Both the position numbers and the translations under genes were made by a program. The notes beneath the pieces were generated by a model. That model did no database searches, was not told the origin of the DNA, and was given only the letters and a program-made list of their open reading frames with translations. A DNA stretch of 64,000 nucleotides from Pseudomonadota bacterium (GTDB lineage: Bacteria; Campylobacterota; Campylobacteria; Campylobacterales; Sulfurimonadaceae): positions 129,004-193,003 of the forward strand of contig JAZDQA010000001.1 in the NCBI GenBank assembly GCA_043797085.1, in the 5' to 3' direction. Positions 28,348 through 42,735 of the stretch are shown piece by piece. Each line of letters starts with the position of its first letter. Position 1 is the stretch's first letter.

Positions 28348-28431
28348 GCGGACGTGGTGGAATGGTAGACACGCTACCTTGAGGTGGTAGTGCCAACAGG
28401 TGTGGGGGTTCAAATCCCCCCGTCCGCACCA
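28348..28431 (+). tRNA. tRNA-Leu (GAG)
   Basis: Acceptor gcggacg/cgtccgc, D-loop tggaatggtagac, anticodon stem ctacc-tt-GAG-gt-ggtag, long variable arm, ttcaaatc T-loop, encoded CCA. Confidence 0.97.
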
Positions 28432-28436
28432 TCTTT
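28409..28436 (+). repeat. attL core (tRNA-Leu 3' end)
   Basis: ttcaaatccccccgtccgcaccatcttt, identical to 39769-39796. Confidence 0.95.
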
Positions 28437-28506
28437 ACTCTTTAACCCCCTAAAATAGCCACTTTCAAAGCCTTTATCTAAAACCACTAAAAACCCCCAT
28501 ACACCC

Positions 28507-29379
28507 CTAGTACGGATTTATGTCCAATTTAAAATCAAATTTTCCGTCATTGATAAATTTAGCGTAGACCTGATGAACCATTTGTGAATCACGATGTCCG
28601 AGTATTTGAGCGAGATTGTGCGGAGTAGTGTAACCACCTGAGAGCATCATAGTAGCGAAGGTGTGTCGAGTGTTGTATAACCGTCGATATTTTATTCCAA
28701 GCTCATCAAAAATCGGCAGCCAAAACTTGTTTGAGAAAGTTTCGTTATGCTGATAGGGCTTTCCAAATTGGGTTACAAAAAGATATTCGTGATCATGATG
28801 ATCAAAGAGCTGCTGCAAGTGAGGGCGCAATAAATCTAAAATAGGGACAGAACGAAAACCGCTTTGAGTTTTGGGTGAGTTCTCCCCATGCCGTCCCCGT
28901 GTACGCTTGATCTTCATAAAACCTTTTTGAAAATCTATATCCTCTTTTTTAAGTCCCATTATCTCACCCGAACGCATACCAGTGTAAAAAGCAATGTATA
29001 GATAATGTTTGAAATTGAAATTATGAACATGATCGATGATTTGATGCATCTCTTTAACTGAAAAAGGCAAGATCTCTTTTTTCATTATTCGAGGTTTACG
29101 CAAGAATCGGCAGGGGTTGGAAGTTATAACTTCATCATAAATAGCTTCATCAAATATTCCCGTGAGCATGGAGATATAATGCGTTAATGTTTTGTTTGAA
29201 CATTGATAATTCAGCAACCAAAGACGGAGTTCACTTGCTTTAATTTCTGAAATATTACGATCTAAAAAAGATGGCATGATTTTATTGCGGATAGTGCCGT
29301 CATAGCGGTAATAGGTAGAGGGTTTTAATTCTACCTTTTTGATTTTTAGGTATGTTTCGGCGTAGTAGTTAAAAGTCAT
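28507..29379 (-). CDS. Tyrosine recombinase / phage integrase
   Basis: YTGMRSGE (R), PKT (K), YNTRHTFAT (xxxR), LGH and catalytic Y in HQVYAK; adjacent to attL. Confidence 0.95.
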   Translation of the reverse strand: MTFNYYAETYLKIKKVELKPSTYYRYDGTIRNKIMPSFLDRNISEIKASELRLWLLNYQCSNKTLTHYISMLTGIFDEAIYDEVITSNPCRFLRKPRIMKKEILPFSVKEMHQIIDHVHNFNFKHYLYIAFYTGMRSGEIMGLKKEDIDFQKGFMKIKRTRGRHGENSPKTQSGFRSVPILDLLRPHLQQLFDHHDHEYLFVTQFGKPYQHNETFSNKFWLPIFDELGIKYRRLYNTRHTFATMMLSGGYTTPHNLAQILGHRDSQMVHQVYAKFINDGKFDFKLDINPY

Positions 29380-29664
29380 TTAAAATCTTGAAAATGAAAA
29401 AGTAGGTTTAAAATAAGAAATAGACTCTAAGGTATCAAGAGACAAAGAAAGCGAATTATAACAACCAACACTAATACCATTAGTTTTACGCCACTTACGA
29501 TCAAATATATCAACATAATGATACTTAAGTTCACGAACCAAAATAAAATCTTGTAAAACCTCTTCACCATTAATATAACGAATTGGACGAACACGAAAAG
29601 AAGCTAACTTATTATTTTGAGACCATAAAACACTGTCAGGATAATCAGCAAGATTAATTAACAT
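29380..29664 (-). CDS. Prophage hypothetical protein
   Basis: AAGGA RBS; abuts the integrase start. Confidence 0.55.
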   Translation of the reverse strand: MLINLADYPDSVLWSQNNKLASFRVRPIRYINGEEVLQDFILVRELKYHYVDIFDRKWRKTNGISVGCYNSLSLSLDTLESISYFKPTFSFSRF

Positions 29665-29789
29665 TTAAAATCCTTTTTTATTTGAGAAAGCGTTAATTGC
29701 TTACAAAAATGATATTTAGCCGTTTTTTTATCATAAAAACCACCACCACAAAAACCACCGCATGAACTACATTGCCGTATCATTGTCAT
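29658..29789 (-). CDS. Small Cys-rich prophage protein (43 aa), absent from the ORF track
   Basis: MTMIRQCSSCGGFCGGGFYDKKTAKYHFCKQLTLSQIKKDFKC; GGGGG RBS; overlaps both neighbours and fills the gap exactly. Confidence 0.55.
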   Translation of the reverse strand: MTMIRQCSSCGGFCGGGFYDKKTAKYHFCKQLTLSQIKKDFKC

Positions 29790-30009
29790 ACCCCCACAAT
29801 TCAGATTCAAAAGAACGTTCTAAACATCGAAGCGAAGTAAGTTCATATTCTTCAAAATGCGTCATAGTAACAAGACGATAAAGTTCATCAATACGAAAAT
29901 CAATAAAAGAAAAATCCGTATTATCATGCATTGAAGAAACATAACTATCAGAATCAATGCCACTTTCAATCATAAGTGAATCTCTATCGTTAAATGTGCT
30001 CATTGTCAT
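29767..30009 (-). CDS. Prophage acidic hypothetical protein
   Basis: GGGGA RBS, overlaps the rep 3' end. Confidence 0.55.
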   Translation of the reverse strand: MTMSTFNDRDSLMIESGIDSDSYVSSMHDNTDFSFIDFRIDELYRLVTMTHFEEYELTSLRCLERSFESELWGYDNDTAM

Positions 30010-31372
30010 ATCCCCACAAATCAGATTCTAAACCAGCTTTTAACGTAATAGGATCAGCACGAAGCAAACCACGATCAACCATTTCGTTATGAGTATGAGC
30101 GTAATGATGAGCGTTAACGGTTTCTATGTCCATTTCTTCATGGTAATAGTTCCAAAGCTGTAAATCACTCATGCGGACGGGTTGAGGGGTGAAATTGAAT
30201 AGCTCACCATCACGGTAAAGGAAATGTTCACCGTCGATGAAAGCATCAATTGTTTTATTGGGAGTGTGAGGATCTTTCCAAATAGATGGAGTTTGTGGAA
30301 GAGTACGAGAGGTATTATCTCTTTTGTCTTTGAGTTCACCAGTTTGACGGATGATAATATTGGTGTTAATGTAGCTCAATGTCAAAACGCCCTGATCATA
30401 CTGGAGACATCTGCCCGATTGCTCAATAAACATGAAGTGATCATCTTCTTTGTTCCATTCACAAAGAAGCGGTTGAGAGCGTTTAAGAGCGGTGATGTGC
30501 AACCATGATTTTTCAATGGTGAATACTTTTTGATAAACCCATTGCGGAACGGTTGAATGAGAAGTGGTAATACGACGGATCTTATGCTTTACGTACCACG
30601 CTTGCAGATAATCAAGCTCATCATTGTTTTTGATGTCCATGAATGACTTGGTGACGTATTTCATGATGTAGCCGACGGGGTTATAGATTGCAGTTTGAAA
30701 GCCCTTTGTATCATCGGGGTTACTGTCAACGTCCGTTGATTTAACATGATTTTGAGGAGCGGGGAAGTATCGCTCGAAGTCTTTTTTAAAGGTGGGAAAA
30801 TACTCTTCAGGAATCCACAAAAGAACGTGAAAATGGGGAACACCGTCTTTGTGAGGTTCAGAAGCTTTGAGGTAAACGAAATCTTTGCCCTCTTTTTTGA
30901 GCTTTTTGAAAGCGTATCCGGCAGAGAAGCGATACCATTGATAAGAGAGCGTGTTATAGCAATCTTTGACGGTGAATTTCTTGCCCTCTTTTATCTTTTC
31001 GCGAAGAAAGCCATAAGTCTCATTATTAGGGATATGGCGCTCATAATCAATCTTGCTAGTTGCATTTAGTTTGTCCCACTTTCTGTAATCTGATTTTAAA
31101 AAGCCACGAAAGAAACCATCAAGCGTAATCGTTAAGAAAACGGGCTTTAAACCCTCATTGAAAGCTAAGTCCGCCATCGTGTTGATCTTGTTGGAAAGTT
31201 GCGCGTAATAGCGTTCTGACATATTGGCGCTGAACGAAACGTCCAGTAATGATTTAACTTGACCCGTTGCGGTGTGGAAATGGTTGTTTTCCAAATAATT
31301 ACGCTGTTTGTCGATTTTATCCCGCATCTGCTGCAAGTCATCGGCGGTTAATCCGTAGGTGTTTTTATTCAT
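29990..31372 (-). CDS. Rolling-circle replication initiator (HUH endonuclease, two-Tyr gpA-like type)
   Basis: Motif I FLTITL, motif II EPHKDGVPHFH, motif III YIMKYVTK; RBS GGAG before ATG at 31372. Confidence 0.88.
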   Translation of the reverse strand: MNKNTYGLTADDLQQMRDKIDKQRNYLENNHFHTATGQVKSLLDVSFSANMSERYYAQLSNKINTMADLAFNEGLKPVFLTITLDGFFRGFLKSDYRKWDKLNATSKIDYERHIPNNETYGFLREKIKEGKKFTVKDCYNTLSYQWYRFSAGYAFKKLKKEGKDFVYLKASEPHKDGVPHFHVLLWIPEEYFPTFKKDFERYFPAPQNHVKSTDVDSNPDDTKGFQTAIYNPVGYIMKYVTKSFMDIKNNDELDYLQAWYVKHKIRRITTSHSTVPQWVYQKVFTIEKSWLHITALKRSQPLLCEWNKEDDHFMFIEQSGRCLQYDQGVLTLSYINTNIIIRQTGELKDKRDNTSRTLPQTPSIWKDPHTPNKTIDAFIDGEHFLYRDGELFNFTPQPVRMSDLQLWNYYHEEMDIETVNAHHYAHTHNEMVDRGLLRADPITLKAGLESDLWGYDNEHI

Positions 31373-31395
31373 GGCTTTCACTCCTATTTTAAGAT

Positions 31396-33006
31396 TTATT
31401 TTTTGCTGATCTGATCGTTGTAAAGTTTTTGATAATGTCCTAGAGCGCCCAAATCCGTTTGAAGAGATGAGAGCGTTTTTGAGTCGTCTATGATGTAGGG
31501 AGTAATCACGAGAAGCAAGTTGTCTTTTTGCGTGATCGTTGATGTGTGTTCGAAGAGCTTGCCGATATAAGGAAGCTTAGAAAGAAACGGAACGCTATCG
31601 TCCACGATTGAATCATAGGACTTTACAAAACCACCCAAAACGATAGTTTCACCGTGATGAAGTATCGAATCAGTCTTAATCTGCTGTTTCGTCGTGATCG
31701 GTTGATTGTTGGTGTCAACGCTTGGAAGAATATTTTCAATAAGCGCATCAATGCTAAGGCTAAGTTTGTCTTTACTGGCTACAAGCGGTTTAATGGTGAG
31801 CGTTAAACCAACATCGGAGCGAGAAAGAGAGTTAGAGGTTCCAGATGATCCAGTAGTGTTACCCGTGAGAAAAGAGAGGGATTTACCCACAACGATTTTT
31901 GACTCTTTGTTGTTGAGACAAAGCAACGATGGATCGGAAAGCGTTTTTGATACCCCCTCACTTTGGAGAAGATCCAATGATGCGCCAATCGTTAAGAGCT
32001 GATTTACATTGCCTAACGACGCAGTGAGTTTGGTAAGAGCCAAAGTATTAACGGGAGCAATAGCGCTTCCACCGAGATTACCAGCAAAAGTGAAAAAATT
32101 ACTTGCACTAACAATTCCTCCGTCAAGTCCATATTTTACTCCTAGTTTTGAGCTTAGATCGTTGTTGAGTTCGAGAATACGCACCTGAATATAAACCTGA
32201 TATTGTTCACGATCGAGATCCGAAATCATAGACGGAACACGTTTCATAACTTCATCATCGCCCTGGACAAAAAGAGTGTTGGAGTCCGAATTTATCGAGA
32301 TTGTAATATCTGATTTATTGTTATCACTGGAGAAAATAGATCCGAGAGTTTGAGCAACAGAAGAGACATTTGAGTTCACCAAGTGAAATGATTTAAAGGT
32401 TTGATTTTTTTGTATTGGCTTTTTGTCAATGTCGTTAATGAGACTTTTAATGAGTTTAAGATTATCGGAGAAATCGGAGACGATAAGAGCGCCATTGTCC
32501 GGAACACCAAAAGCAGAACCCGAAGCAGAGAGGAGAGAACGGACCCCCTCAAGGATTGGCAGCACGTTGGAATATTTGATATGTATGACTTTAGTACCAA
32601 ATCCTGCTGATGAGCGAGAGCCAAGATAAACGCTGTCATATTGTTTTAAATCTTTAGCATTTACGACGGTGTAATAAGAGCCGTTGTTAACGAGAGCATA
32701 ACCGTTAAGTTCAAGGGCGGATTTTAACAAAGGCAAGACGTTTTTAGATCGTATATCCATGTTAGAGAGATAATCAATAGAACCATCGAGCTTTCCGGAT
32801 ACGAGGATATTTCTACCCAAAGACTTAGAAGCAAGACGGATAAATTCATTAAGGCTCATACCATCAAGAGTACTTACCATTGGAGGCGGTGGAAGCATTG
32901 GGATCATTGGGGTGTTGATGGTTGATTTAGCGATAGGTGCAGGGGCTTTTAATTCCGCAGAATTAAGAGAAAAAGCGATTAACAACGTGAGAAGTATTTT
33001 TATCAT
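31396..33006 (-). CDS. Phage-encoded secretin (pIV / GspD-like)
   Basis: Signal peptide, N0/N-domain repeats, QVYIQVRILE, DVGLTLTIKP, GETIVLGG, VPFLSKLPYIGKLF, LVITPYII. Confidence 0.9.
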   Translation of the reverse strand: MIKILLTLLIAFSLNSAELKAPAPIAKSTINTPMIPMLPPPPMVSTLDGMSLNEFIRLASKSLGRNILVSGKLDGSIDYLSNMDIRSKNVLPLLKSALELNGYALVNNGSYYTVVNAKDLKQYDSVYLGSRSSAGFGTKVIHIKYSNVLPILEGVRSLLSASGSAFGVPDNGALIVSDFSDNLKLIKSLINDIDKKPIQKNQTFKSFHLVNSNVSSVAQTLGSIFSSDNNKSDITISINSDSNTLFVQGDDEVMKRVPSMISDLDREQYQVYIQVRILELNNDLSSKLGVKYGLDGGIVSASNFFTFAGNLGGSAIAPVNTLALTKLTASLGNVNQLLTIGASLDLLQSEGVSKTLSDPSLLCLNNKESKIVVGKSLSFLTGNTTGSSGTSNSLSRSDVGLTLTIKPLVASKDKLSLSIDALIENILPSVDTNNQPITTKQQIKTDSILHHGETIVLGGFVKSYDSIVDDSVPFLSKLPYIGKLFEHTSTITQKDNLLLVITPYIIDDSKTLSSLQTDLGALGHYQKLYNDQISKK

Positions 33007-34178
33007 TGTGTGATCCCTGCTGATTTATATACATCGCTTGATGATCCAAATGTAGATTTAGATTTTTGTGTTTGCAATAATGGAACATTCCACATCGAAA
33101 AATATCTAATATCATCCGAGGGTATAGAGAAAAGACGATCATTGTATTCAACATCAAAAACGCGAACCGTAGAGCCTGCAAGCAGTTTGGAATCAATCAT
33201 TTTTAAAGCCTCTTCAAAATATAAACGCGGAATGTAGTTTGTGACAAAAGCATTATCAACACGAGAGCAGGCAATGGCATCACAGCGAACACGCAAGAGC
33301 ATGGAGGAAGAAATAGGAGATTTTTCTACTGTTATGTTTTCATCAATAGAAGCAAATTGATTAGATTGTAAATTTTCATTTTCTACTGGATCAGGAGCTA
33401 AACGACTAAATAATAAATAAATCATTATTGCAATGAGCAAAGCACCGCCAGCAATATAGCCGATGAATTTATGCAAAATCTTTTTAGGATTGTGCATATC
33501 GCCCGACTTATAAAGCTCGAAAACAGACTGATTTACAAGAATATGATCAACATGATGAAAAGGGGTAGTTTTATAATTATCAGAGGAAAAATACTTGTAC
33601 CGAAAAGTTTTATCAGAAAAGCTTTTTTTTCGTGGCTGCGCATCGATGTAGTCTTCCACATAAGGCTTATAATAGTCAGCACTCATAAGCGTAGGAAGAT
33701 GAATAATGATTAATATATCATGACCTAAGTGTCCATGATAACCATGCCACCATTTCAAAACGGGATCAACTTTTTTAGTGTAATAACGATACGCTTCATC
33801 GATCACAAAAAAAGCAGGGGTTAATTTATGATAACGTGCATAGGTTTGCAACTCTTCATCGGGTTTATCTACCATAGCCATTTCATGCAGTTTTGTTAAG
33901 TGTTTATAGAACCATTCCCAATCTAAATAAATGGACTCTTTAACAAGCATATCATCCAAGATTAAAGGATATTTTTCTTTTAATTTGTCGTCCATAATAA
34001 GTGGATTTTTTTGTAGTTGCTCATTGACTAGATCATGTTTAAAACCGCCAATATTGCAATAAAGATATTTATGTTTTGGAAAATCGGGAGATTTTGGATC
34101 AATGAAGTTTTTTTGAATGTACCAAACAGCACGATAAGATTTACCCGAACGAGGTAAACCCGTAAAAATAGAAATCAT
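33003..34178 (-). CDS. pI/Zot-like morphogenesis ATPase
   Basis: N-terminal Walker A TGLPRSGKS, Walker B FFVIDEA, HGH motif, single TM helix, periplasmic tail. Confidence 0.92.
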   Translation of the reverse strand: MISIFTGLPRSGKSYRAVWYIQKNFIDPKSPDFPKHKYLYCNIGGFKHDLVNEQLQKNPLIMDDKLKEKYPLILDDMLVKESIYLDWEWFYKHLTKLHEMAMVDKPDEELQTYARYHKLTPAFFVIDEAYRYYTKKVDPVLKWWHGYHGHLGHDILIIIHLPTLMSADYYKPYVEDYIDAQPRKKSFSDKTFRYKYFSSDNYKTTPFHHVDHILVNQSVFELYKSGDMHNPKKILHKFIGYIAGGALLIAIMIYLLFSRLAPDPVENENLQSNQFASIDENITVEKSPISSSMLLRVRCDAIACSRVDNAFVTNYIPRLYFEEALKMIDSKLLAGSTVRVFDVEYNDRLFSIPSDDIRYFSMWNVPLLQTQKSKSTFGSSSDVYKSAGITQ

Positions 34179-34477
34179 GTTGAGCGGATAAACGCAAGAA
34201 CTTGTTTAGCACCAAATCCCGCGACAATGATAGTTAAAAACAATGCAAGACCTTGCAAAACACCTAGTTGTATAGCCATAACCAAAAGACCATTAGAAAC
34301 GATGTAAGGCTTAACAAGATCAACCATGAAATGAAAAGCATAAGTGACAAGCCCAGTGAAAATAGCGAAGATCATCATTTTTAAAACAAAAGGATGTTTA
34401 ACCAAAAATACAAAAACAGAAGTTAAGAAAGAGATAACGGGGGCAAGCCAAGGGACGAAAGCAAGTAAAGCGGGCAT
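34175..34477 (-). CDS. pVI-like minor coat protein
   Basis: 100 aa, highly hydrophobic, canonical position between the pIII-like and pI genes. Confidence 0.75.
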   Translation of the reverse strand: MPALLAFVPWLAPVISFLTSVFVFLVKHPFVLKMMIFAIFTGLVTYAFHFMVDLVKPYIVSNGLLVMAIQLGVLQGLALFLTIIVAGFGAKQVLAFIRST

Positions 34478-34479
34478 TT

Positions 34480-36141
34480 TTAAACTCCTGAAAATACAAC
34501 AATAAAGCCCGCAATAGCAGACATTAAAAGAAATAAACCACGAATAAGATCAAGAGGTAATTTATTTAATAACTCTTGATCCATAATCACAAAATAATGA
34601 CCTAATATAGTGAAGCCATAAGTAGGGAGTGAAGAAGCAGAACACAAATTATTAAGACCGAGTGGATCGGTAAACACAAAACCATCAAGTGAGTTTTTAG
34701 CGTCATTGCCAAGAGCATCAAAGGTACTATGCCCGTCAGCATCCGAACCAGTAGCGCGGGAAGTATCAACACTATCAGTATTTTTAAACATTCCTAAAAT
34801 CTTGTCTAAAAAACTTGATGAATCACCCGTATTTTTCTTAATGTCATTTAAAACGCCTGTGTAATCGGGACCGTTGCCAGTAGAGCCACCAGTGCCAGCG
34901 CCAGTGCCACCAGTGCCGGAAGTTGTAGGAGAGGATACAACAGTGCCACCATTAGCACCGGAAACAGTAGGAGCAACGGTTGGATCATTTGGGGTTGTTG
35001 TTACTGTGCCGTCGGGGTTTTGAGTGACAGTAATGGGGGTTGTTTTTGTGGTAGTGATCGGGTTTGAGCTAGTGGAACCAGTAGAATGGGTTGTGGTTGT
35101 GGCGGTACCAGTATTATAATCGTATTTGGTTGTTTGAGTACCATCGAGATTAATAGGAGCCGTTAATGATCCATCAGCTGTATTGACTGAAGTAGATGAA
35201 TTTAATTGTGTCATAACAGCAGGTGGGATCGTTGATACTTCATCAACTTTACCCGTCGTTGTATCAGTTTTTGAAACAATTGCAGGAGAATTGCCATAAA
35301 AATATTCCCAGTCATGTGCAGGTTCTGTGGCAGTTGCATGAGTGAAAACAGGAGCACCTCCAGCAGAATCAGGGGCAGGAGTTGGATTGGTTTTGGTAGG
35401 AGTTGGAGCGGGAACGGGTTTGACTTTATTGTCGACAGGATCTTTAAAAGATACTTTTAATCTATTATCACCTTGAATGGTATCCATAGAAGGTGGAGTA
35501 GAAGAACCATAGTTTTGAAGAGCAGAAAATCCAACCATAGTCGCACCTAAACCAGTAGCCCAAGCTCCAGCACCAATAGCAGGATAAGACATTCCCCCAG
35601 TAAAAGGAAGAGCGAGAACCCCACCAGCAGAAAGAGCAACACCACCAATTACAGCAAGAGAACCGACAACAGCAAATGGATCTGAAGCAATTTTTTTCCA
35701 AGCCTCAGCACCACCATTACACGAACCGTCAGCAAAATAATATCCGCCCGCAGCATCACAACCCGCAGGATCGTTGTTGTAATCGTTCATAGGATCGGAG
35801 GATGGAGTAGGTGGAAAATCAGGTCCACATCCATGAGCGTTCATAGTAGTGCCAGCAGGACAAGAAGGAGGAACACAAACGTCATTATTATTTGGAGCGG
35901 TATTAGCAGGGCATACATCATCATAGCAATTTATATGCAGAGCATTACACGATAATAAAGAACCGGGTTGGACTATATATTGATCCCAATATAAAAAATT
36001 ACCATTATTATAATTATACATAGAGCATGACTCGCCCTCTTGTAAAGAGCCATAATCAATAATCATTGTTTGGTCGCAAATTGAAGAAGCAAACGCCGAA
36101 GAAGCAAAAAGCAATGAAGCAAGTATTATTGATTTACGCAT
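34480..36141 (-). CDS. pIII-like adsorption protein
   Basis: Signal peptide, Cys-rich N-domain, Pro/Thr/Gly-rich linkers (TSGTGGTGAGTGGSTG), C-terminal TM anchor. Confidence 0.78.
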   Translation of the reverse strand: MRKSIILASLLFASSAFASSICDQTMIIDYGSLQEGESCSMYNYNNGNFLYWDQYIVQPGSLLSCNALHINCYDDVCPANTAPNNNDVCVPPSCPAGTTMNAHGCGPDFPPTPSSDPMNDYNNDPAGCDAAGGYYFADGSCNGGAEAWKKIASDPFAVVGSLAVIGGVALSAGGVLALPFTGGMSYPAIGAGAWATGLGATMVGFSALQNYGSSTPPSMDTIQGDNRLKVSFKDPVDNKVKPVPAPTPTKTNPTPAPDSAGGAPVFTHATATEPAHDWEYFYGNSPAIVSKTDTTTGKVDEVSTIPPAVMTQLNSSTSVNTADGSLTAPINLDGTQTTKYDYNTGTATTTTHSTGSTSSNPITTTKTTPITVTQNPDGTVTTTPNDPTVAPTVSGANGGTVVSSPTTSGTGGTGAGTGGSTGNGPDYTGVLNDIKKNTGDSSSFLDKILGMFKNTDSVDTSRATGSDADGHSTFDALGNDAKNSLDGFVFTDPLGLNNLCSASSLPTYGFTILGHYFVIMDQELLNKLPLDLIRGLFLLMSAIAGFIVVFSGV

Positions 36142-36295
36142 GATAAGAGTCTTTTTTTAAAAGCCATTTTTGACGGCATTTTTCATCATATTCAGGGGTA
36201 TAATAAAAATCAACGAGTTTATTAATACCTTTAAAGATGGCGTAAACGCTTATTAAGAACGATATGATTATCAGCATTAAAAAGAGTTGCATCAT
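36134..36295 (-). CDS. Small membrane protein (53 aa; pVII/pIX-like candidate), absent from the ORF track
   Basis: MMQLFLMLIIISFLISVYAIFKGINKLVDFYYTPEYDEKCRQKWLLKKDSYHA; AAGGA RBS; overlaps both neighbours. Confidence 0.6.
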   Translation of the reverse strand: MMQLFLMLIIISFLISVYAIFKGINKLVDFYYTPEYDEKCRQKWLLKKDSYHA

Positions 36296-36423
36296 CTATG
36301 ATCCTTTATAACTTGTAAAGCCAAAGTGCCTATAAAAAATAATAAGCCAGCGGATGCAGTAATCGAAAAGAAAAAATCAAAAGCGGGATCACCAGTAAAA
36401 TTAAAAACTAAAAATTTAGTCAT
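36292..36423 (-). CDS. Small membrane protein (43 aa; pVII/pIX-like candidate), absent from the ORF track
   Basis: MTKFLVFNFTGDPAFDFFFSITASAGLLFFIGTLALQVIKDHR; ATGA overlaps at both ends. Confidence 0.6.
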   Translation of the reverse strand: MTKFLVFNFTGDPAFDFFFSITASAGLLFFIGTLALQVIKDHR

Positions 36424-36617
36424 TGTAATTTCCAAAGAAACAAGCCAAAAAGAAAACCAGTTAAAAGACCGGCATAAGACATAGAAGTCTCATAATTAGC
36501 AGTAGACATACCTAAATCGCTTGCACGTTGTGAAGGTTTAGTCATATCTTTATAAGCAAAAGCAGACGGAGCAAAAACCGCCCCGACGATGACAAAAGAT
36601 AAAAATAATTTTTTCAT
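36420..36617 (-). CDS. Signal-peptide-bearing small virion-like protein
   Basis: MKKLFLSFVIVGAVFAPSAFA signal peptide, then 44 aa with a C-terminal TM. Confidence 0.6.
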   Translation of the reverse strand: MKKLFLSFVIVGAVFAPSAFAYKDMTKPSQRASDLGMSTANYETSMSYAGLLTGFLFGLFLWKLQ

Positions 36618-36627
36618 TAAAAACCGT

Positions 36628-36867
36628 TCAATACTTAAATTTTTTGCCATCAATATAAAATTCTCCACTACCATCATCAGAAGTTAAAAGACGAGTAATC
36701 ATTTTATAACCAAATGAAATTATCAATACTCCCAATATGATAATAAAAACGATTGCCATATCTGTTAAAATTGATGATGAATTAACATCCGCTGAAACAA
36801 GAGCAGCAGATGCAAAAGGAGAGAAAACCGCCCCTAAAATAAAAAATGAAAGGGCAAGTTTTTTCAC
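36628..36867 (-). CDS. Major-coat (pVIII)-like paralog 2 with C-terminal extension
   Basis: GTG start; signal peptide, then ALVSADVNSSSILTDMAIVFIIILGVLIISFGYKMITR, colinear with 36872-37072. Confidence 0.7.
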   Translation of the reverse strand: MKKLALSFFILGAVFSPFASAALVSADVNSSSILTDMAIVFIIILGVLIISFGYKMITRLLTSDDGSGEFYIDGKKFKY

Positions 36868-36871
36868 GGGA

Positions 36872-37072
36872 TTAACCGATTTGCTTTTTGATCATGCGAT
36901 AACCGAAACCGATTACCAATACACCAAGAATAGCAACAAAAACGATACCCATGTCAGCAGTAGCAGAAGACATAGAAACGTCAGCAGCAGTTAGAGCAGC
37001 AGAAGCATTTTGAGCAGAAGCAACAACGATAACACCAGCGGCGATTAAGCCTTTTTTTACATTTGGTAACAT
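36872..37072 (-). CDS. Major coat protein (pVIII-like) precursor
   Basis: AAGGA RBS; ASA/A signal cleavage; 41-aa mature peptide with acidic N-terminus, TM helix and basic C-terminus (YRMIKKQIG). Confidence 0.82.
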   Translation of the reverse strand: MLPNVKKGLIAAGVIVVASAQNASAALTAADVSMSSATADMGIVFVAILGVLVIGFGYRMIKKQIG

Positions 37073-37140
37073 TTTGACATCCTTGTCAATATAAGATAAT
37101 GGGCTTACAAAAGCGCGGGGAGCGGTTAATGCCAACATCG

Positions 37141-37581
37141 TTATGACTTAGGTGTTTGAGCTTTGTTAAGCTCAACGGCGATTTTTACGTCTTGGTTATA
37201 AATCTCTTTAGCGGAATATATGGATACGCAGTTGTAATCTTCGCCACGTTTTAGGAACGGTTGACGATCTTTGATTGCTACGATATCGACATCACGGTCG
37301 GGCATTGTTGTTTCAACGAAGAACGGTGTTTTTGTGGAACGGCATTTAAGAAGATATTCTGAAAGCTGTTTAAGTTCTTCCATGTTGTCGCAGTTAATAC
37401 GGATATTAAGAGACTCAACGGTTTCTTTAAAGCCCATTTCCTCATCGGGTGTCATCATGACGTTACGGGTGTTTATTGTGACGTTGAAAGACGTTTTTTC
37501 TTTGTTACTGTAAGGTTTGATTGCGATGATTTCATCAACAACGACTTTAGGGATAAAACCTCTTGAAACTACTTGACTCAT
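37141..37581 (-). CDS. Prophage protein, possible ssDNA-binding (pV-like by position only)
   Basis: AGGAG RBS; soluble, apparently beta-rich; lies immediately upstream of the coat genes. Confidence 0.5.
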   Translation of the reverse strand: MSQVVSRGFIPKVVVDEIIAIKPYSNKEKTSFNVTINTRNVMMTPDEEMGFKETVESLNIRINCDNMEELKQLSEYLLKCRSTKTPFFVETTMPDRDVDIVAIKDRQPFLKRGEDYNCVSIYSAKEIYNQDVKIAVELNKAQTPKS

Positions 37582-37748
37582 TTTTTCACTCCTAATTTAA
37601 AAAAGTTTTTTTGCTTTGTTTCCTGATGATTAACGTCCCCGGAGTGAAAGCAAGGAGGACGGCTGACTTACAGACTCACCGAGGTGAGAAATGCAACTGG
37701 GTTAAAGAGAAAACTGCAATTGATGATTTGAATATGAGACAAATGCCG

Positions 37749-37991
37749 TCATACCGTTATGAGTAACTTTTTTTGGAATTTTCCAAGATCAATAGCAAAA
37801 TAAAGAGGTTGAAAAAAACGAACAAATTTAAATTTGATTCGTTTGAGGTTTTTAATAAACGGAGATTCGTTATAATAGATAAAAGCGTTTCCAGTACATT
37901 GAAATAATGGGGAAACGGGGAGTGAAAGACCTGCTTTATTTTCTTTAGTCGATCTACCGAGAGGTAAGGTTTGGCGAGTTTCTTTTTTCAT
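37749..37991 (-). CDS. Basic prophage hypothetical protein (first gene of the leftward operon)
   Basis: GGAGTGAAAGCCATG start context identical to that of rep; coding status uncertain. Confidence 0.4.
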   Translation of the reverse strand: MKKETRQTLPLGRSTKENKAGLSLPVSPLFQCTGNAFIYYNESPFIKNLKRIKFKFVRFFQPLYFAIDLGKFQKKLLITV

Positions 37992-38006
37992 GGCTTTCAC
38001 TCCGTT

Positions 38007-38097
38007 TTGTAAATATTACTTATTTAATCTTTTAAATGGTAACAGTTACAATATTAAAGAAAGCTGAATATTACGAGCAATTTTGTAATATTTACAA
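38007..38097. promoter_or_regulatory. Putative repressor operators in the divergent promoter region
   Basis: 13-bp inverted pair ttgtaaatattac (38007-38019) / gtaatatttacaa (38085-38097) plus partial aatatta copies. Confidence 0.5.
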
Positions 38098-38126
38098 TAA
38101 ATATTAATTTAATTGAAAGATTTACA

Positions 38127-38330
38127 ATGACAAAAGAAGAATTAGCGGATGAGCTAGGTGTATCACTGAAAACTCTTTACAATTGGGAGAAAGAAAAACC
38201 CGGACTTGTAAAACTCATAAACCTTGGTTTAACAATGGAAGACCAAATAGATGAAGCCGAAAAACACTTAGAAAAACTCAAAGCGATTAGAGACAAAGCT
38301 ACCAGTAGCAATAAATTTAAGTTGAAGTAG
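38127..38330 (+). CDS. HTH (XRE/Cro-like) transcriptional regulator, probable prophage repressor
   Basis: TKEELADELGVSLKTLYNWE helix-turn-helix; divergent from the structural operon. Confidence 0.85.
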   Translation: MTKEELADELGVSLKTLYNWEKEKPGLVKLINLGLTMEDQIDEAEKHLEKLKAIRDKATSSNKFKLK

Positions 38331-38335
38331 AGACG

Positions 38336-39055
38336 ATGGGATTTGTAATATTTTTTATCTTTGTAACTATCATCGCATCTACACTAGCAATATTACTAGC
38401 AGGGAAAAAAGAGACTTATGAAAATAGACAAATTAAAATAAAAAAACAAAATTTTACTGCACCTATCGATCGTGATAGGTATTTAAAAAATCTTGAAAGA
38501 AACAAAGCAGCAGGAAGAGAATTATTAGAAAAAAAATATCCTGATATAAAATATATTGAAACACCTATCATAGTTGATGAAAAAATACAATTTAGAGAAG
38601 TTAAAGAAATCAAAAAACAAGAATCTGAATTCAAACCATATACAGATGATGAAAAAAAAGCATGGGGAGAAAAAAAACAAGAGAAAAAAGAAAAAGGCGC
38701 ACTCTATGAAGCATTTGTCGCAGAACACTACCGATCATTAGGATATGAAGTCATAGAGCATGGAAAAATAAAAGGAAAAAAAGATGGTGGCATTGATTTA
38801 ATCGCCAAAAATATGGAAGAAGTGATTATGATCCAATGCAAGAACTGGAGAGCTGGAAGCAAATATACAATCAATCACGCAATGATAAGTGCATTTGTAG
38901 GAAATGTTGCAATGTTCATTGCAAAAAATACTGAATATGAAAAATATATGATTAAGAGAGTTTATGCAATTTCAGAAGAAATTCTAGATAAATCAGCATT
39001 GGCGCGTATCAAAGATAATAAAGAAATGGTAATGTATCAACACATACCGTTTTAA
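38336..39055 (+). CDS. Membrane-anchored Mrr-like (PD-(D/E)xK) restriction endonuclease
   Basis: N-terminal TM; YEAFVAEHY...DGGIDLIA...IQCK Mrr catalytic-domain signature. Confidence 0.8.
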   Translation: MGFVIFFIFVTIIASTLAILLAGKKETYENRQIKIKKQNFTAPIDRDRYLKNLERNKAAGRELLEKKYPDIKYIETPIIVDEKIQFREVKEIKKQESEFKPYTDDEKKAWGEKKQEKKEKGALYEAFVAEHYRSLGYEVIEHGKIKGKKDGGIDLIAKNMEEVIMIQCKNWRAGSKYTINHAMISAFVGNVAMFIAKNTEYEKYMIKRVYAISEEILDKSALARIKDNKEMVMYQHIPF

Positions 39056-39070
39056 AGATAGTAATCCAAA

Positions 39071-39085
39071 GGGGTGACTAGCCCC
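39071..39085. terminator. Hairpin between convergent transcripts (possible bidirectional terminator)
   Basis: gggg-tgactag-cccc with aaa on the left and a T-rich tract on the right. Confidence 0.4.
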
Positions 39086-39096
39086 AATGTTTTTGA

Positions 39097-39159
39097 TTAA
39101 TGAAGAATAGGCGCGAAAGCCATCAACACTAAAAAGATTACTACGACTTTGTAATTCAA
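39097..39159 (-). CDS. 20-aa hydrophobic peptide, candidate type I toxin (Ibs-like in size and hydrophobicity)
   Basis: TTG start 8 nt after AGAAGGGA; (M)NYKVVVIFLVLMAFAPILH*. Confidence 0.55.
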   Translation of the reverse strand: MNYKVVVIFLVLMAFAPILH

Positions 39160-39211
39160 GGGGAACGTCCCTTCTATGAGTTCCCACCCACCCCATCCTA
39201 GCCATGAAGGC

Positions 39212-39246
39212 AAAAAAAAAGGGAGACAGCCCGAAAGCTATCCCCC
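39212..39246 (-). terminator. Intrinsic terminator
   Basis: gggggatagc-tttcgg-gctgtctccc followed by T9 on the minus strand. Confidence 0.8.
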
Positions 39247-39294
39247 TACTCATATATTCGCTAGTCAGGCGAAAAGGTTGTTCCCTTGAATACA
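39212..39294 (-). ncRNA. Candidate ~80-nt small RNA (putative antitoxin)
   Basis: TTGATA-16-TATCAT promoter with extended TG (39301-39328), internal hairpin ttcgc-ctgacta-gcgaa, strong terminator with T9. Confidence 0.55.
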
Positions 39295-39768
39295 AGAAGA
39301 ATGATAGCAGAAAATTAGACAATATCAAAACACTCGGATTTTAATTAATGTCTGTAAACTTTTGATAATTTGACAAGGGGAGTCGGCACAGCCTCCTCCC
39401 AACCCCTAAGAATAGGGGTTTACGGCTTAGTGCTCGTGCGTCGCTAAGGCGCTCCTTTCTCGCAAAAATCGCCGCCGTTTTAGTTTTGTTTTTTGGATTG
39501 GTTTTGTGTGCTGCTAAAGTTGATTTTCTGTAGATCAGGCAGAGAGCTTGGCTCCGCTATTCGCGTCGGGAAAGTTAGAATCCTGCTACATCCATTTTTC
39601 AGTCCTTGAGAACGAAGGGTTAATTTGCCTTTTGCTGCAAAGTGTTTAGCCCTCGAAAAATCTGTGTGTGTTTGAGTAGTGCGTGAAGAGCGCAACGCTT
39701 CGCTTACTGGGGGAGACCCCAGCCCCCTAAATGCTAAAAATAGGGCTTTGTTAACAGTGGTGTAATTC

Positions 39769-39796
39769 TTCAAATCCCCCCGTCCGCACCATCTTT
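39769..39796 (+). repeat. attR core (duplicated tRNA-Leu 3' end)
   Basis: Exact 28-bp copy of 28409-28436. Confidence 0.95.
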
Positions 39797-39909
39797 TTTC
39801 TTCAATAATTTCTCAAATTTTTTACTTTTTTTTCTGAATAATCTTATTATTTCAATCCTATTTACACTTATGATAATGTATAATCCATCACTTTAGTTGA
39901 GGATATTTT

Positions 39910-42735
39910 ATGTTGTTGAACAATCTTGTTGTCTATAAAAATGATCGTTTGAATATTGAAGCGTCATTAAGTGATGCGATTGAACGTATGGAACAAGAAC
40001 GAGAAAGTCATATCGTATTGTTAGACGGTTCTATCGCTATGGGAATTTTGACCCTCAAAAATATTATAGAACTTTATGCGGCAGGGATACAGCGAGAGAG
40101 CAAGGCGATTGAGTTTGCTACTTATCCTATCATATCCATTCATGATGATCGACCTTTGGATATGGCGGTTGAAATGATGATCGATTATGAGATACGCCGC
40201 ATTGTTTTGATCGATGAAAAAGATCATTATATCGGTACGCTTACTCAAAATGACATCCTTCGATACTATGAAAACAACCTCCAAACAACCACTGAAATAT
40301 CGCAGTGTTTACACGGGCGAAACCGTGCAATAGCGATAAATGTAAATGCAACGATCGAAGAAGCGATTCATCTCATGCGGTATGAGCATCGTGATGTATT
40401 ACTGCTGATGGACGAGACTAAAACACTTGGCGTTGTGACCGAAAAAGATATTTTAGGATTTGTGTATCAAAATCTTCCAAGCAGTGAATTAGTTTCGACG
40501 TGTATTTATACGTCCATTATCAGTGTTGGGGCAGATGAGAAGATACGCAAAGCGGTTGAAATGATGAGAGAGAAAAAAATTCATCATTTAGTCGTCCACT
40601 GGGAAAATGACCTTTATATTTTGAATGAAAAAAATTTGCTATTAAGTTATACCACGACACTTGAGGTGACGCTTGAAGCGAAGCTTCGTGATGCACGGGC
40701 GACGTACAATCTTTTGGGGATTGCTTTTTGTGAGATAGTTGATTTGGGAGAAATACAAATTATCAAATGGCTAAATGCTGAGGCGATGTTGACGTTTCAG
40801 GTCAAAATAGACGATAATGTATCACGAATGCTCGGAGCAGAAAATTGGAATCGTATTATGGATTCGTTTAGAGTAAATCGAGGAGTTGAACATGAACGAA
40901 TCGAGGTGAAAGGACGGGTTTATGAGCTAACGCTGATGGAAGCTGAGGTGAATTGCAAATCTATCTTGAAACTTTTTTTGAATGATGTTAGTGATTTAGT
41001 ACGGCTTAGTGAAGAGCTTGCTCTGTCATTGACGCACACGATAGAGCTGGAAAAAGAAAAAAGCAGACTCTATTTGGATGTTACATCGGTGATATGTCTG
41101 GCGTTGGATTGGGAGGGGACGATAGTACTTCTAAATCCCAAGGGATGTGAGATATTGGGGATAACAAAAGAGGAAGCTATCGGAAAAAATTGGTTCACTA
41201 CTTTTGTGGCGAAGGAACATATCTTAGAAACCAAAACATTTTTTACCTCCATCATAGAAGGGAAAAAAGAGATAGTAGAATATTATGAAAATGAGGTATG
41301 TACGGCCAGTGGCGAAACGCGCATGATTGCATGGCACAATGCGCTACTGCGTGATTCTAACGGAGTCATTACCGGAACGTTTTCATCCGGTGAAGACATT
41401 ACCAAAATTCAAGAGTCCGAGAAAGAACTTGAACGTTTGGCGCATTATGATGTGCTTACCAATTTACCGAATCGACTTCTATTGAGTGCAAGACTTGAGC
41501 ACTCTATAGTGCGAGCACAGCGTGAAAAAACAAAGTTGATTGTGTTGTATGCGGACATTGATAATTTTAAAGACATTAATGAATCGTATGGGTATAGCAT
41601 AGGGGATTTTGTTATTAAAGAAGTAGCTTCTAAGATGAGTATGTTGATTCGTAATGAAGACACGATTAGTCGAATTGGCGGAGATGAGTTTGTAATTCTT
41701 CTTGAAGAGATTCAACAGATAAGGGAATGTGAACGGACTCTACAGCAGATTATGGAGCTTTTTAATACACCGATTGAGACATCTGAGGGTGCTTTAAAGC
41801 TCAGTGTTAGCATTGGCATCACCCTTTATCCTGACGATGGAGAAAGCGGCGAAACCTTATTGAAAAATGCAGATATCGCATTGCGTCGAGCAAAAGAGGT
41901 TGGGGAGAGTAATTATTGCTTTTTTACTCAGGATATGAGTGTAAAGTTATTGGAGAGGGTATTGATGGAGCGGGAGCTTCGACGTGCCATAGAAGATAAA
42001 GAGTTTGTTGTCTATTATCAGCCTCAAGTGAATCTATTAACCGGTGCACTTATCGGAGCAGAGGCGCTGGTACGTTGGCAACATCCTACAATGGGGATTG
42101 TCCGTCCGGATGTATTTATACCACTTGCGGAGAGTAATAATCTTATTGTCCCCATCGGGGAAGAGGTACTGTTGCAATCGTGTAAAGCCATAAAAAAATG
42201 GAAAGAATTAGGACTGTTTCTGGGAAGAATATCCGTCAATGTATCCGGAAAACAGTTTGAACGTTCAAATGCAGTTGAAACGATTCGTCGAATCATCCAT
42301 GAGAGTGAACTTGAGCCCCAATATGTTGAATTAGAGATTACAGAAAGTGTGTTAATGGGCAATCCTGTTGTACTGGGGGAGAAGCTCATTGCTTTAAAAG
42401 AATTTGGAATAGAGATTGCGATTGATGATTTTGGTACAGGCTATTCCAGTTTGAGTTATCTCAAGGCTTTTCCTATCGATAAACTCAAAATCGATCAATC
42501 GTTTGTTCGTGAGCTTCCTCATAGTGAGCGAGACAGCGCGATTGTCAAAGCCATTATTGCTATGGCAGATGCTCTTGGGTTTAAAACCATAGCAGAGGGA
42601 ATTGAAAAAGAAGCTCAGGCAAACTTTTTAAAAGAGTTTGGATGCATGCAAGGGCAGGGTTATATGTACGCCCGCCCGCTTGATGAAAAAGCGTTCGAAC
42701 TATTTTTGATACGTCATAAGAGTTCTCTCTCATAA
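39910..42735 (+). CDS. CBS-PAS-GGDEF-EAL diguanylate cyclase/phosphodiesterase
   Basis: Tandem CBS repeats, PAS/PAC, intact GGDEF, EAL and DDFGTG motifs. Confidence 0.92.
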   Translation: MLLNNLVVYKNDRLNIEASLSDAIERMEQERESHIVLLDGSIAMGILTLKNIIELYAAGIQRESKAIEFATYPIISIHDDRPLDMAVEMMIDYEIRRIVLIDEKDHYIGTLTQNDILRYYENNLQTTTEISQCLHGRNRAIAINVNATIEEAIHLMRYEHRDVLLLMDETKTLGVVTEKDILGFVYQNLPSSELVSTCIYTSIISVGADEKIRKAVEMMREKKIHHLVVHWENDLYILNEKNLLLSYTTTLEVTLEAKLRDARATYNLLGIAFCEIVDLGEIQIIKWLNAEAMLTFQVKIDDNVSRMLGAENWNRIMDSFRVNRGVEHERIEVKGRVYELTLMEAEVNCKSILKLFLNDVSDLVRLSEELALSLTHTIELEKEKSRLYLDVTSVICLALDWEGTIVLLNPKGCEILGITKEEAIGKNWFTTFVAKEHILETKTFFTSIIEGKKEIVEYYENEVCTASGETRMIAWHNALLRDSNGVITGTFSSGEDITKIQESEKELERLAHYDVLTNLPNRLLLSARLEHSIVRAQREKTKLIVLYADIDNFKDINESYGYSIGDFVIKEVASKMSMLIRNEDTISRIGGDEFVILLEEIQQIRECERTLQQIMELFNTPIETSEGALKLSVSIGITLYPDDGESGETLLKNADIALRRAKEVGESNYCFFTQDMSVKLLERVLMERELRRAIEDKEFVVYYQPQVNLLTGALIGAEALVRWQHPTMGIVRPDVFIPLAESNNLIVPIGEEVLLQSCKAIKKWKELGLFLGRISVNVSGKQFERSNAVETIRRIIHESELEPQYVELEITESVLMGNPVVLGEKLIALKEFGIEIAIDDFGTGYSSLSYLKAFPIDKLKIDQSFVRELPHSERDSAIVKAIIAMADALGFKTIAEGIEKEAQANFLKEFGCMQGQGYMYARPLDEKAFELFLIRHKSSLS

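Follow-up and report, generated by a model that had tools for sequence, protein, structure and literature searches.

Three co-evolved contact points between a short RNA and the message of a small hydrophobic peptide suggest a new toxin–antitoxin layout

The present study suggests that a small locus near the end of a filamentous prophage represents a new toxin–antitoxin layout: a short RNA is matched at three co-evolved contact points to the message of a 20-residue hydrophobic peptide, with which it apparently shares one promoter. Specifically, comparison of homologous loci combined with structure prediction makes it probable, in our estimate, that the locus is a type I toxin–antitoxin module run from that one promoter. 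The earlier note on this DNA had proposed a same-strand, non-overlapping RNA antitoxin module, and this is still the best reading; the ORF and the pairing are both conserved in homologous loci, whereas a lack of such conservation had been set beforehand as the refuting outcome. The same note had left the choice between a tandem small RNA and an attenuated leader. These are probably one and the same thing, because only one promoter is conserved.

Anatomy of the unit and its prophage setting

The window (the whole 64,000-nt stretch of DNA analyzed, to which all positions refer) carries an integrated filamentous, inovirus-type prophage of 11.4 kb at 28409–39805, assigned to neither strand and delimited from repeat, tRNA, Pfam and PHROG matches. 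Its ends are a 37-nt direct repeat of 92% identity, with attL (28409–28445) at the 3′ end of a tRNA-Leu gene (28348–28431) and attR at 39769–39805, and its gene set includes an integrase, a rolling-circle replication protein, a pIV secretin, a Zot/pI protein, a coat protein, an HTH repressor, and an Mrr-like gene. The flagged unit lies near the right end of this prophage and is the one full copy of the module in the window's genome. The host is a sulfur oxidizer that, judged from named homologues, belongs among Sulfuricurvum and Sulfurimonas. Elsewhere in its genome, another unit of ~85 nt that runs from a promoter to a U9 (L204:330–430, minus strand; G000:C4:47031–47118) matches the short-RNA model weakly (E 0.003) and is without the peptide half. 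The convergent neighbor of the module, an Mrr-like nuclease gene (38336–39055, plus strand; PF04471, E 7.7e-9), is given as context only. Its position looks like a variable slot for prophage cargo, because locus L170 has an unrelated gene there.

All parts of the unit are on the minus strand, and the promoter, the terminator hairpin with its T9, the Shine-Dalgarno (SD) sequence, the TTG-initiated ORF, and the 3′ hairpin lie where they had first been placed. The promoter (39301–39328) consists of TTGATA, a 16-nt spacer, and an extended −10 element, TG-C-TATCAT, with a predicted start at about 39294; it is the best of six promoter-like sites in 38400–40200, a region in which the number of sites alone is at chance (6 vs. 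5.7 expected). The predicted short RNA of ~83–84 nt (39212–39294; fold z = −2.38) is a terminated leader and the candidate antitoxin. From its 5′ end it comprises patch 1 (39274–39294), an arm identified from cognate duplex energies as complementary to the SD, spacer, start codon, and codons 2–3; hairpin 1 (39257–39273), whose loop (39262–39268) is patch 3, the putative kissing loop, and bears a YUNR motif; patch 2 (39248–39256), a linker complementary on the same measure to the stretch just 5′ of the SD; and an intrinsic terminator (39212–39247) with a 12-bp stem (hairpin 39247–39221) and U9 (T9 at 39220–39212).

Immediately past the U-run is a small hairpin (39201–39211; 98.1% paired), and beyond it a G-rich tract conserved in the alignment (39183–39194), which is a candidate block to 5′–3′ trimming or a candidate ribosome standby site. 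The target of patch 2 (39175–39181) and the SD (39168–39175) together occupy 39168–39181, within a local SD-sequestering stem; the 16S 3′ end was searched for in the assembly and not found. The 20-codon ORF (39097–39159) has a TTG start and encodes MNYKVVVIFLVLMAFAPILH, an AapC/Ibs-like hydrophobic peptide and the candidate toxin. Downstream, a 3′ hairpin (39071–39085) presents the partner of patch 3 in its loop (39075–39081), and on the plus strand this hairpin also scores as the terminator of the convergent Mrr-like gene. Finally, a 3′ tail (39058–39066) pairs with codons 6–8 (39136–39144) and closes a folded 3′ domain, and the unit thus reaches 39058.

The three complementary pairs described at the outset are present, and homologues keep all of them via compensatory change. 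Patch 1 extends on both sides of the complementarity then reported, to ~20 nt from the SD to codon 3, and is interrupted by a one-base bulge (three G vs. four C). The target of patches 1 and 2, which lie on either side of hairpin 1, is continuous, and pairing with it produces a junction that leaves the hairpin loop free. None of 200 shuffles folds as well as the 236-nt unit (39295–39060; z = −3.26); the message half alone folds no better than shuffles (z = −0.16). The terminator has a mean stem probability of 0.99 within the leader. In a search of Rfam over the unit, the best match reached 17.4 bits vs. a cut-off of 50 and covered the terminator only.

Several other features of the prophage were recorded. 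Three consecutive small coat-like genes with similar signal-peptide-like starts occupy 36423–37138 (minus strand), of which the inovirus coat profile matches the first only. A hairpin-rich noncoding stretch between the module and attR (39360–39770) is a candidate phage origin or packaging region. Owing to a 44-nt direct repeat (29780–29823 and 30000–30043), the small ORF that follows the replication gene closes with a copy of that gene's end. The repressor and Mrr-like gene (37907–38773, plus strand) are letter-identical to one contig of a groundwater metatranscriptome at a depth of 30.6, with DNA carry-over possible. In the same metatranscriptome, which consists of contigs only and is uninformative on short RNAs, ends, or levels, depth is zero over 38842–39258, a gap to which no weight is given, and among the records listed there is some over 39259–39675.

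Conservation of the peptide and of the pairing

Homologues were found by blastn in 12 of 36 genomes of the genus, and a motif covering the last 13 codons matched in 54 of 301 genomes of the host family, from 5 of 23 genera, with no match for the reversed control. From the 77 motif matches, 75 were taken (two at contig ends were left out), giving 74 distinct copies. Separate models of the two halves agree on the genomes that they match, 21 of 66 in the genus. For an out-of-sample search, a covariance model made from the message half only was run over 151 genomes of the order; it matched in ten, at ten loci in five other families, one of them seen before and nine new, and all ten distant copies have an upstream promoter of 7–8 of 8 together with hairpin and terminator. 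In a sample of the phylum, one large family gave no match in 60 genomes and another gave one in 53, that one being AapC-type. Among viral contigs, a first DNA pattern gave no matches, and later patterns gave three true copies (L153, L170, and L171, one of them AapC-type) and two false ones. A tblastn search of plasmids with the peptide gave none, blastn against named phages gave just terminator-sized chance matches, and Pfam and PHROG yielded no meaningful match for the RNA or the peptide. The blast matches L019 and L002–L005 and the pattern match L147 were rejected as chance.

The order of elements is conserved: a strong extended −10 promoter, the ~84-nt RNA (5′ arm, hairpin, linker, terminator, U9), a G-rich tract, the SD, a hydrophobic ORF of 19–20 codons, and a folded 3′ domain. 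Promoter and terminator were parsed by script in 64 of the 74 copies; by eye, the ten unparsed ones are five intact variants, one without SD and start, two at a contig end, and two without the upstream unit. The −10 box scores 7–8 of 8 in 60 of 62 copies (two mis-picked boxes excluded), the short RNA measures 79–95 nt across the 64 parsed copies, and the U-run is 9 nt long in 61 of them.

Because the motif constrains nothing beyond the 3′ half of the ORF, the upstream start and the open frame constitute independent evidence. An in-frame start (TTG in 55, ATG in 10, and GTG in 6) lies seven to eight codons upstream of the motif in 71 of 74 copies, and neither of the other two frames has one there in any of the 74. 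The seven variable codons are free of stops in all 74 copies, compared with 63 of 74 in the only fair control frame. The 71 peptides contain no acidic residue, their core is without charged residues, glycine, or proline, and their mean hydropathy is 2.04. The TAA/TAG stop covaries with a leucine codon. This pattern points to a small hydrophobic ORF under selection, as in type I toxins. Scored against the family profile, three Helicobacter pylori peptides beat 99–100 of 100 shuffles, a result that is partly circular because they were picked by the shared motif, and E. coli IbsA, B, D, and E were equalled or beaten by 16–53 of 100. The likeness to E. coli Ibs is one of size and composition only, and the Ibs profile PF13956 matched neither the locus nor any of 54 peptides. 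Because the E. coli Ibs score is not above that of its own shuffles, toxicity of the candidate peptide is argued by analogy, with indirect hints from the resemblance to AapC/Ibs and from the way in which copies decay.

The predicted duplexes between short RNA and message are specific to each copy. Across the 64 parsed copies (two mis-cut rows being retained), the mean energy of cognate vs. non-cognate duplexes is −18.6 vs. −7.8 kcal/mol for patch 1, −8.3 vs. −4.5 kcal/mol for patch 2, and −5.7 vs. −4.0 kcal/mol for patch 3, and a copy's own partner comes out best in 48, 21, and 13 of the 64, respectively, a ranking in which many copies have loop types in common. For each of the three patches, not one of 10,000 permutations reached the cognate mean. 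The ten distant copies behave in the same way for patch 1 (−18.3 vs. −7.2 kcal/mol, own partner best in 9/10), patch 2 (−8.9 vs. −3.7 kcal/mol), and patch 3 (−7.9 vs. −4.3 kcal/mol); two of their 3′ loops were mis-picked by the script and match by eye. Where a genome has several copies, 35 of 38 comparisons show stronger predicted binding of the short RNA to its own message than to that of a paralogue. In sequence and in modeled duplex, the short RNA thus appears complementary to the translation start region of its cognate message.

When all column pairs of 55 aligned copies were ranked by mutual information, without prior choice of sites, the two highest were loop–loop pairs. Bases of the kissing helix are paired in 94.5% of instances, and its three pairs show 24, 10, and 19 double changes. 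Since kin are not independent, change events were also counted on a tree built without the loop columns: the kissing pairs co-change on at least 13, at least 5, and at least 13 branches, against null maxima of 7, 2, and 6, and the intramolecular pairs, at 2–5 shared branches, do so on fewer. The loop–loop match is a perfect 6 bp in 47 of the 55 copies, in seven sequence types; the remaining loops are five misaligned matches, one single mismatch, and two poor ones (L069 and L085). Both kissing loops are predicted to be open (0.88 and 0.89), and the YUNR U-turn motif is found in the loop of hairpin 1 in 60 of 64 copies and in the 3′ loop in 54.

The helices within the RNA also covary. The stem of hairpin 1 is 98.6% paired with double changes at 4/4 pairs, the terminator stem has double changes at 7/8 pairs, and the small hairpin after the U-run has seven at one pair, on at least four shared branches. 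The helix of the 3′ tail with codons 6–8 is 98.4% paired, with double changes at 7/8 pairs and cognate vs. non-cognate energies of −10.0 vs. −6.4 kcal/mol. Pairing of the anti-SD with the SD is weak (cognate −5.2 vs. −4.5 kcal/mol). Two further pairings were rejected. For a par-like upstream helix of the G-tract with the ORF end or the 3′ arm, the cognate is no better than the non-cognate; of the pairs proposed within the ORF, 233–272, 234–271, 242–263, and 245–260 are unpaired and 241–264 is mostly unpaired, so that only short inner helices hold.

Transcript logic and rival explanations

None of the 64 parsed copies has a box scoring 7–8 of 8 between the first start and the SD, and no conserved antisense promoter was found, including further downstream. 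A box in the antisense −10 register of IsoC occurs in 2 of 74 family copies and not in the window. Given that there is no conserved second promoter and no IsoC-type antisense promoter, the peptide message most likely arises by read-through, and one conserved promoter before RNA, terminator, and peptide gene is, from sequence, the most likely arrangement. RNA that runs through the small hairpin is favored because the two arms of this hairpin covary. An antiterminator in the leader is not supported, as no competing fold removes the terminator, and constitutive low read-through is favored on the same ground. The predicted cost of opening the message from the SD to codon 3 is 14.7 kcal/mol with the leader vs. 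9.8 kcal/mol without it (17.8 vs. 8.9 in the window), and since the leader raises this cost, the read-through RNA would be a locked precursor.

These considerations lead to the following model. Most transcripts would end at the intrinsic terminator to give an abundant RNA of ~84 nt, while a minority would read through into a precursor of ~235 nt, whose leader would fold over the SD and start codon and keep it untranslated; in this lock, hairpin 1 would be enclosed by a nested junction of patches 1 and 2. As the leader is slowly trimmed away from its 5′ side, a translatable message would result, with the small hairpin and G-tract perhaps setting the new end of that message. Such processing is proposed because of the analogy with tisB, hok, and AapA1, as far as these are described in the relevant parts of PMC5416894. 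The main degradosome nuclease of H. pylori is RNase J, according to the sections of PMC8322730 on that complex, and that RNase J might process the leader here is a guess. Free short RNA would make a loop–loop kiss with the 3′ hairpin of the message and then cover SD and start, and in this way one sequence would serve two roles, as cis lock of the precursor and, in the form of the terminated RNA, as trans block of the matured message. Upon loss of the element or a stop of transcription, the short RNA would run out and the matured message would be translated, and the 20-residue peptide would damage the inner membrane, resulting in prophage or plasmid addiction and possibly defense.

A doubtful alternative is that the short RNA is an independent gene acting in trans only, in a tandem type I arrangement whose message starts from a separate weak promoter close to where the U-run ends. 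A weak string, TG-C-(C/T)A(A/T)TTT, does lie 2 nt past the U-run in 37 of 64 copies, T-rich tracts upstream resemble promoters of this phylum, and L069 and L139 have a true −10 box after the same small-hairpin sequence. Yet the string, which is missing from the window and from many copies, scores 4–6 of 8 and never more. It is also part of a hairpin with covarying arms that must both be in one RNA, and relatives of the H. pylori type have a single promoter ~100–110 nt before the start. We give as little weight to a purely cis-acting device, in which terminator and self-locking leader hold a small and perhaps nontoxic membrane peptide very low, the short RNA is a by-product, and the two loops meet in an intramolecular pseudoknot of the precursor. 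In the full-length fold, patches 1 and 2 show perfect nesting and are fully explicable by cis folding, chromosomal contexts are common, and the one-promoter module itself posits its trans step. Against a cis-only device, the kissing loops change far more often than the intramolecular helices yet stay matched, paralogues are insulated, both loops bear U-turn motifs, short-RNA units persist without the peptide half, and the patchy spread over 21 of 66 genomes of the genus fits a selfish module. The one-promoter module with action in trans is further indicated, indirectly, by the 3′ loop being made last, after the cis lock has closed, and by a fast-changing loop code that insulates paralogues; the units without a peptide half also count indirectly for it.

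Two other explanations fare considerably worse. That this is an ordinary AapC/IsoC-type locus, with a cis-antisense RNA as the true antitoxin and the upstream unit a mere 5′ leader, is very improbable. The peptide and mRNA fold do resemble AapC-type loci, and a perfect antisense −10 lies in the last codons of four of seven H. pylori loci and one viral copy, with hexamers of 4–6 of 6 seen there by eye in several distant tandem copies; the antisense box is nevertheless confined to the two family-level copies mentioned, none is conserved downstream, and H. pylori-type leaders have neither the terminator unit nor the loop–loop match. We attach almost no credence to the locus being something other than an RNA module, either hairpins in the ssDNA of the filamentous phage, with a part in its origin or its packaging, or a leader peptide that controls a downstream gene. 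The unit does sit in the hairpin-rich noncoding end of an inovirus prophage, but promoter, U-run, SD, start codon, and reading frame are all conserved, and copies on a plasmid and in chromosomes, with unrelated neighbors in either orientation, largely refute this explanation; the next gene in the window is convergent.

Relation to known systems, genomic contexts and decayed copies

The earlier note had not recognized a family for this locus. It is not an orphan: peptide and mRNA fold resemble H. pylori AapC. H. pylori peptides stand among the Ibs homologues of Fozo et al. (PMC2887945, supplement file 1), and they lie at the T1TAdb coordinates of AapC/IsoC (PMC8594479, in which the family is named). 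The overlap is partly by design, since one degenerate DNA motif recovered 44 stretches from the genome collection, 3 of them from H. pylori. The likeness includes a 16–18-residue hydrophobic peptide ending in LM(A/V)x(A/T)(T/P)xL(Y/H) and, independently of the motif, a G-rich tract, an SD hairpin, leader pairing over SD and start, and a helix from mid-ORF to the 3′ tail; AapC-type leaders of H. pylori would form a cis lock similar to that of patches 1 and 2. In contrast, H. pylori-type leaders have no terminator or loop–loop match and the intact ones carry an antisense −10 in the last codons, whereas in the module the leader is cut off by a terminator, a kissing hairpin is present, and 72 of 74 copies lack the antisense box. 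The position of the IsoC promoter is our inference from the H. pylori loci and the coordinates in Table S2 of T1TAdb, as is the fit of the antisense −10 to these coordinates, because the ORF must run opposite to the direction given by Fozo et al. and the two tables conflict. Two non-Helicobacter peptide genes without a terminator unit, L114 and L153, have 5′–3′ end pairing and antisense −10-like boxes, an AapC-like layout.

Recognition is reminiscent of par (Fst/RNAII) of Enterococcus pAD1. As described in the portions of PMC7472228 on this system, par shares with the module a U-turn loop–loop kiss at the 3′ hairpin of the toxin message, two stretches at SD and start, an imperfect duplex, and an SD stem-loop in the message. 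The par RNAs, however, have convergent promoters, a shared two-way terminator, and direct repeats, while the module has both RNAs on the same strand, inverted complementarity, one promoter, and a one-way U-run, and its peptide is without the PXXXG motif, tryptophan, and charged C-terminal tail of Fst. With Ibs/Sib, as outlined in PMC8594479 and PMC8309996, the module has in common a peptide of 18–20 residues that is basic near a variable N terminus, with a hydrophobic core and an aromatic or histidine end; Sib is antisense and spans the ORF in these accounts, whereas the module has no conserved antisense promoter. AapA/IsoA, tisB/IstR1, and hok/Sok combine an inactive full-length message with activation by end processing, and AapA adds kissing recognition (PMC5416894, PMC8594479, in the parts on these systems). 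The tisB class also has a non-overlapping, 5′-located antitoxin gene (PMC8594479), as here, but the antitoxins of all three have their own promoter on the opposite strand, the orientation of tisB being taken from the strand columns of T1TAdb Table S3. Layouts in T1TAdb are overlapping, 3′-convergent, or 5′ and separate, in tables that do not name strands for every family (PMC8594479), and for none of these layouts is the antitoxin given as a terminated leader of its toxin's message.

The operon logic is that of type III (ToxIN) and AbiF/RCd22 systems, in which, according to the sections of bioRxiv 10.1101/2025.04.15.648962 on them, one promoter is followed by the antitoxin RNA, an intrinsic terminator, and a toxin expressed by read-through, and the terminator sets the ratio of RNA to toxin. 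In type III, the RNA has repeats and binds the toxin protein (same source), whereas the module's RNA would pair with the message of a 20-residue peptide. A search of the locus for a type III signature found no repeat array and no nuclease toxin protein of that size or family. Collectively, peptide and fold resemble AapC, recognition resembles par/Fst, and operon logic resembles type III. In the open-licence full-text literature, we found neither a same-transcript type I system nor a terminated toxin-message leader acting as antitoxin. On balance, we lean toward a joint reading in which the module came from an AapC/IsoC-like ancestor (or was its source) by a swap of a cis-antisense RNA for a leader-derived one, and in which the fast three-part code is an incompatibility system among prophages and plasmids of the Campylobacterales, with orphan antitoxins giving immunity.

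If the module is confirmed, then type III operon logic is joined to type I RNA pairing, and one peptide gene is able to change over between antitoxin designs that are not related. The specificity code, which can be read in more than 80 natural cognate pairs, would then provide a test of whether kissing loops evolve to insulate mobile elements from one another. Searches that rely on an antisense promoter would miss this layout. A cultured, non-pathogenic host, Sulfuricurvum kujiense DSM 16994, with a copy on a 3.4-kb plasmid (NC_014763.1), makes the module testable.

The locus is inside a prophage, as first described, but the family is not prophage-specific, occurring on a plasmid, in conjugative and defense regions, and at plain chromosomal sites. 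Copies on two viral contigs occupy the same slot as in the window and face an accessory gene. The 149 flanking ORFs include Mrr-like nucleases (6), Rep, relaxase, ParA-like, T4SS, integrases, resolvase, terminase, CI repressor, HEPN, GmrSD, and ParE, as well as many housekeeping genes, and about four in ten are without a family. These contexts are compatible with mobile addiction by a module that has also settled in chromosomes; many copies lie between ordinary chromosomal genes, and for these, mobile-element addiction would not apply. The module and its presumably toxic peptide may stabilize the prophage, as the earlier note had suggested, and abortive infection is possible, with nothing specific pointing to it.

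Broken copies mostly lose the peptide half, an observation from a handful of draft-genome cases to which no statistic is attached. Short-RNA units stand without the peptide half in L069, L179, L195, and L190, the last by a clean internal deletion, and L189 has such a unit in decayed form; in L006 and L058 the short RNA is intact and the start or SD is broken. Conversely, L067, L202, and L203 are 3′-half relics without leader and SD, and L054 has kept SD and ORF and lost the promoter and most of the short RNA. Several neighborhoods were also recorded in the scan of flanking ORFs and copies. Mrr-like genes adjoin six further copies (loci named: L026, L027, L049, L076, L092, L100, and L171), and at L013:3–1475 a Cas9-like HNH/RuvC gene ends directly at a module copy. 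One genome has the module as two head-to-tail pairs, L092 and L093, and within each pair the two copies differ in their patch codes.
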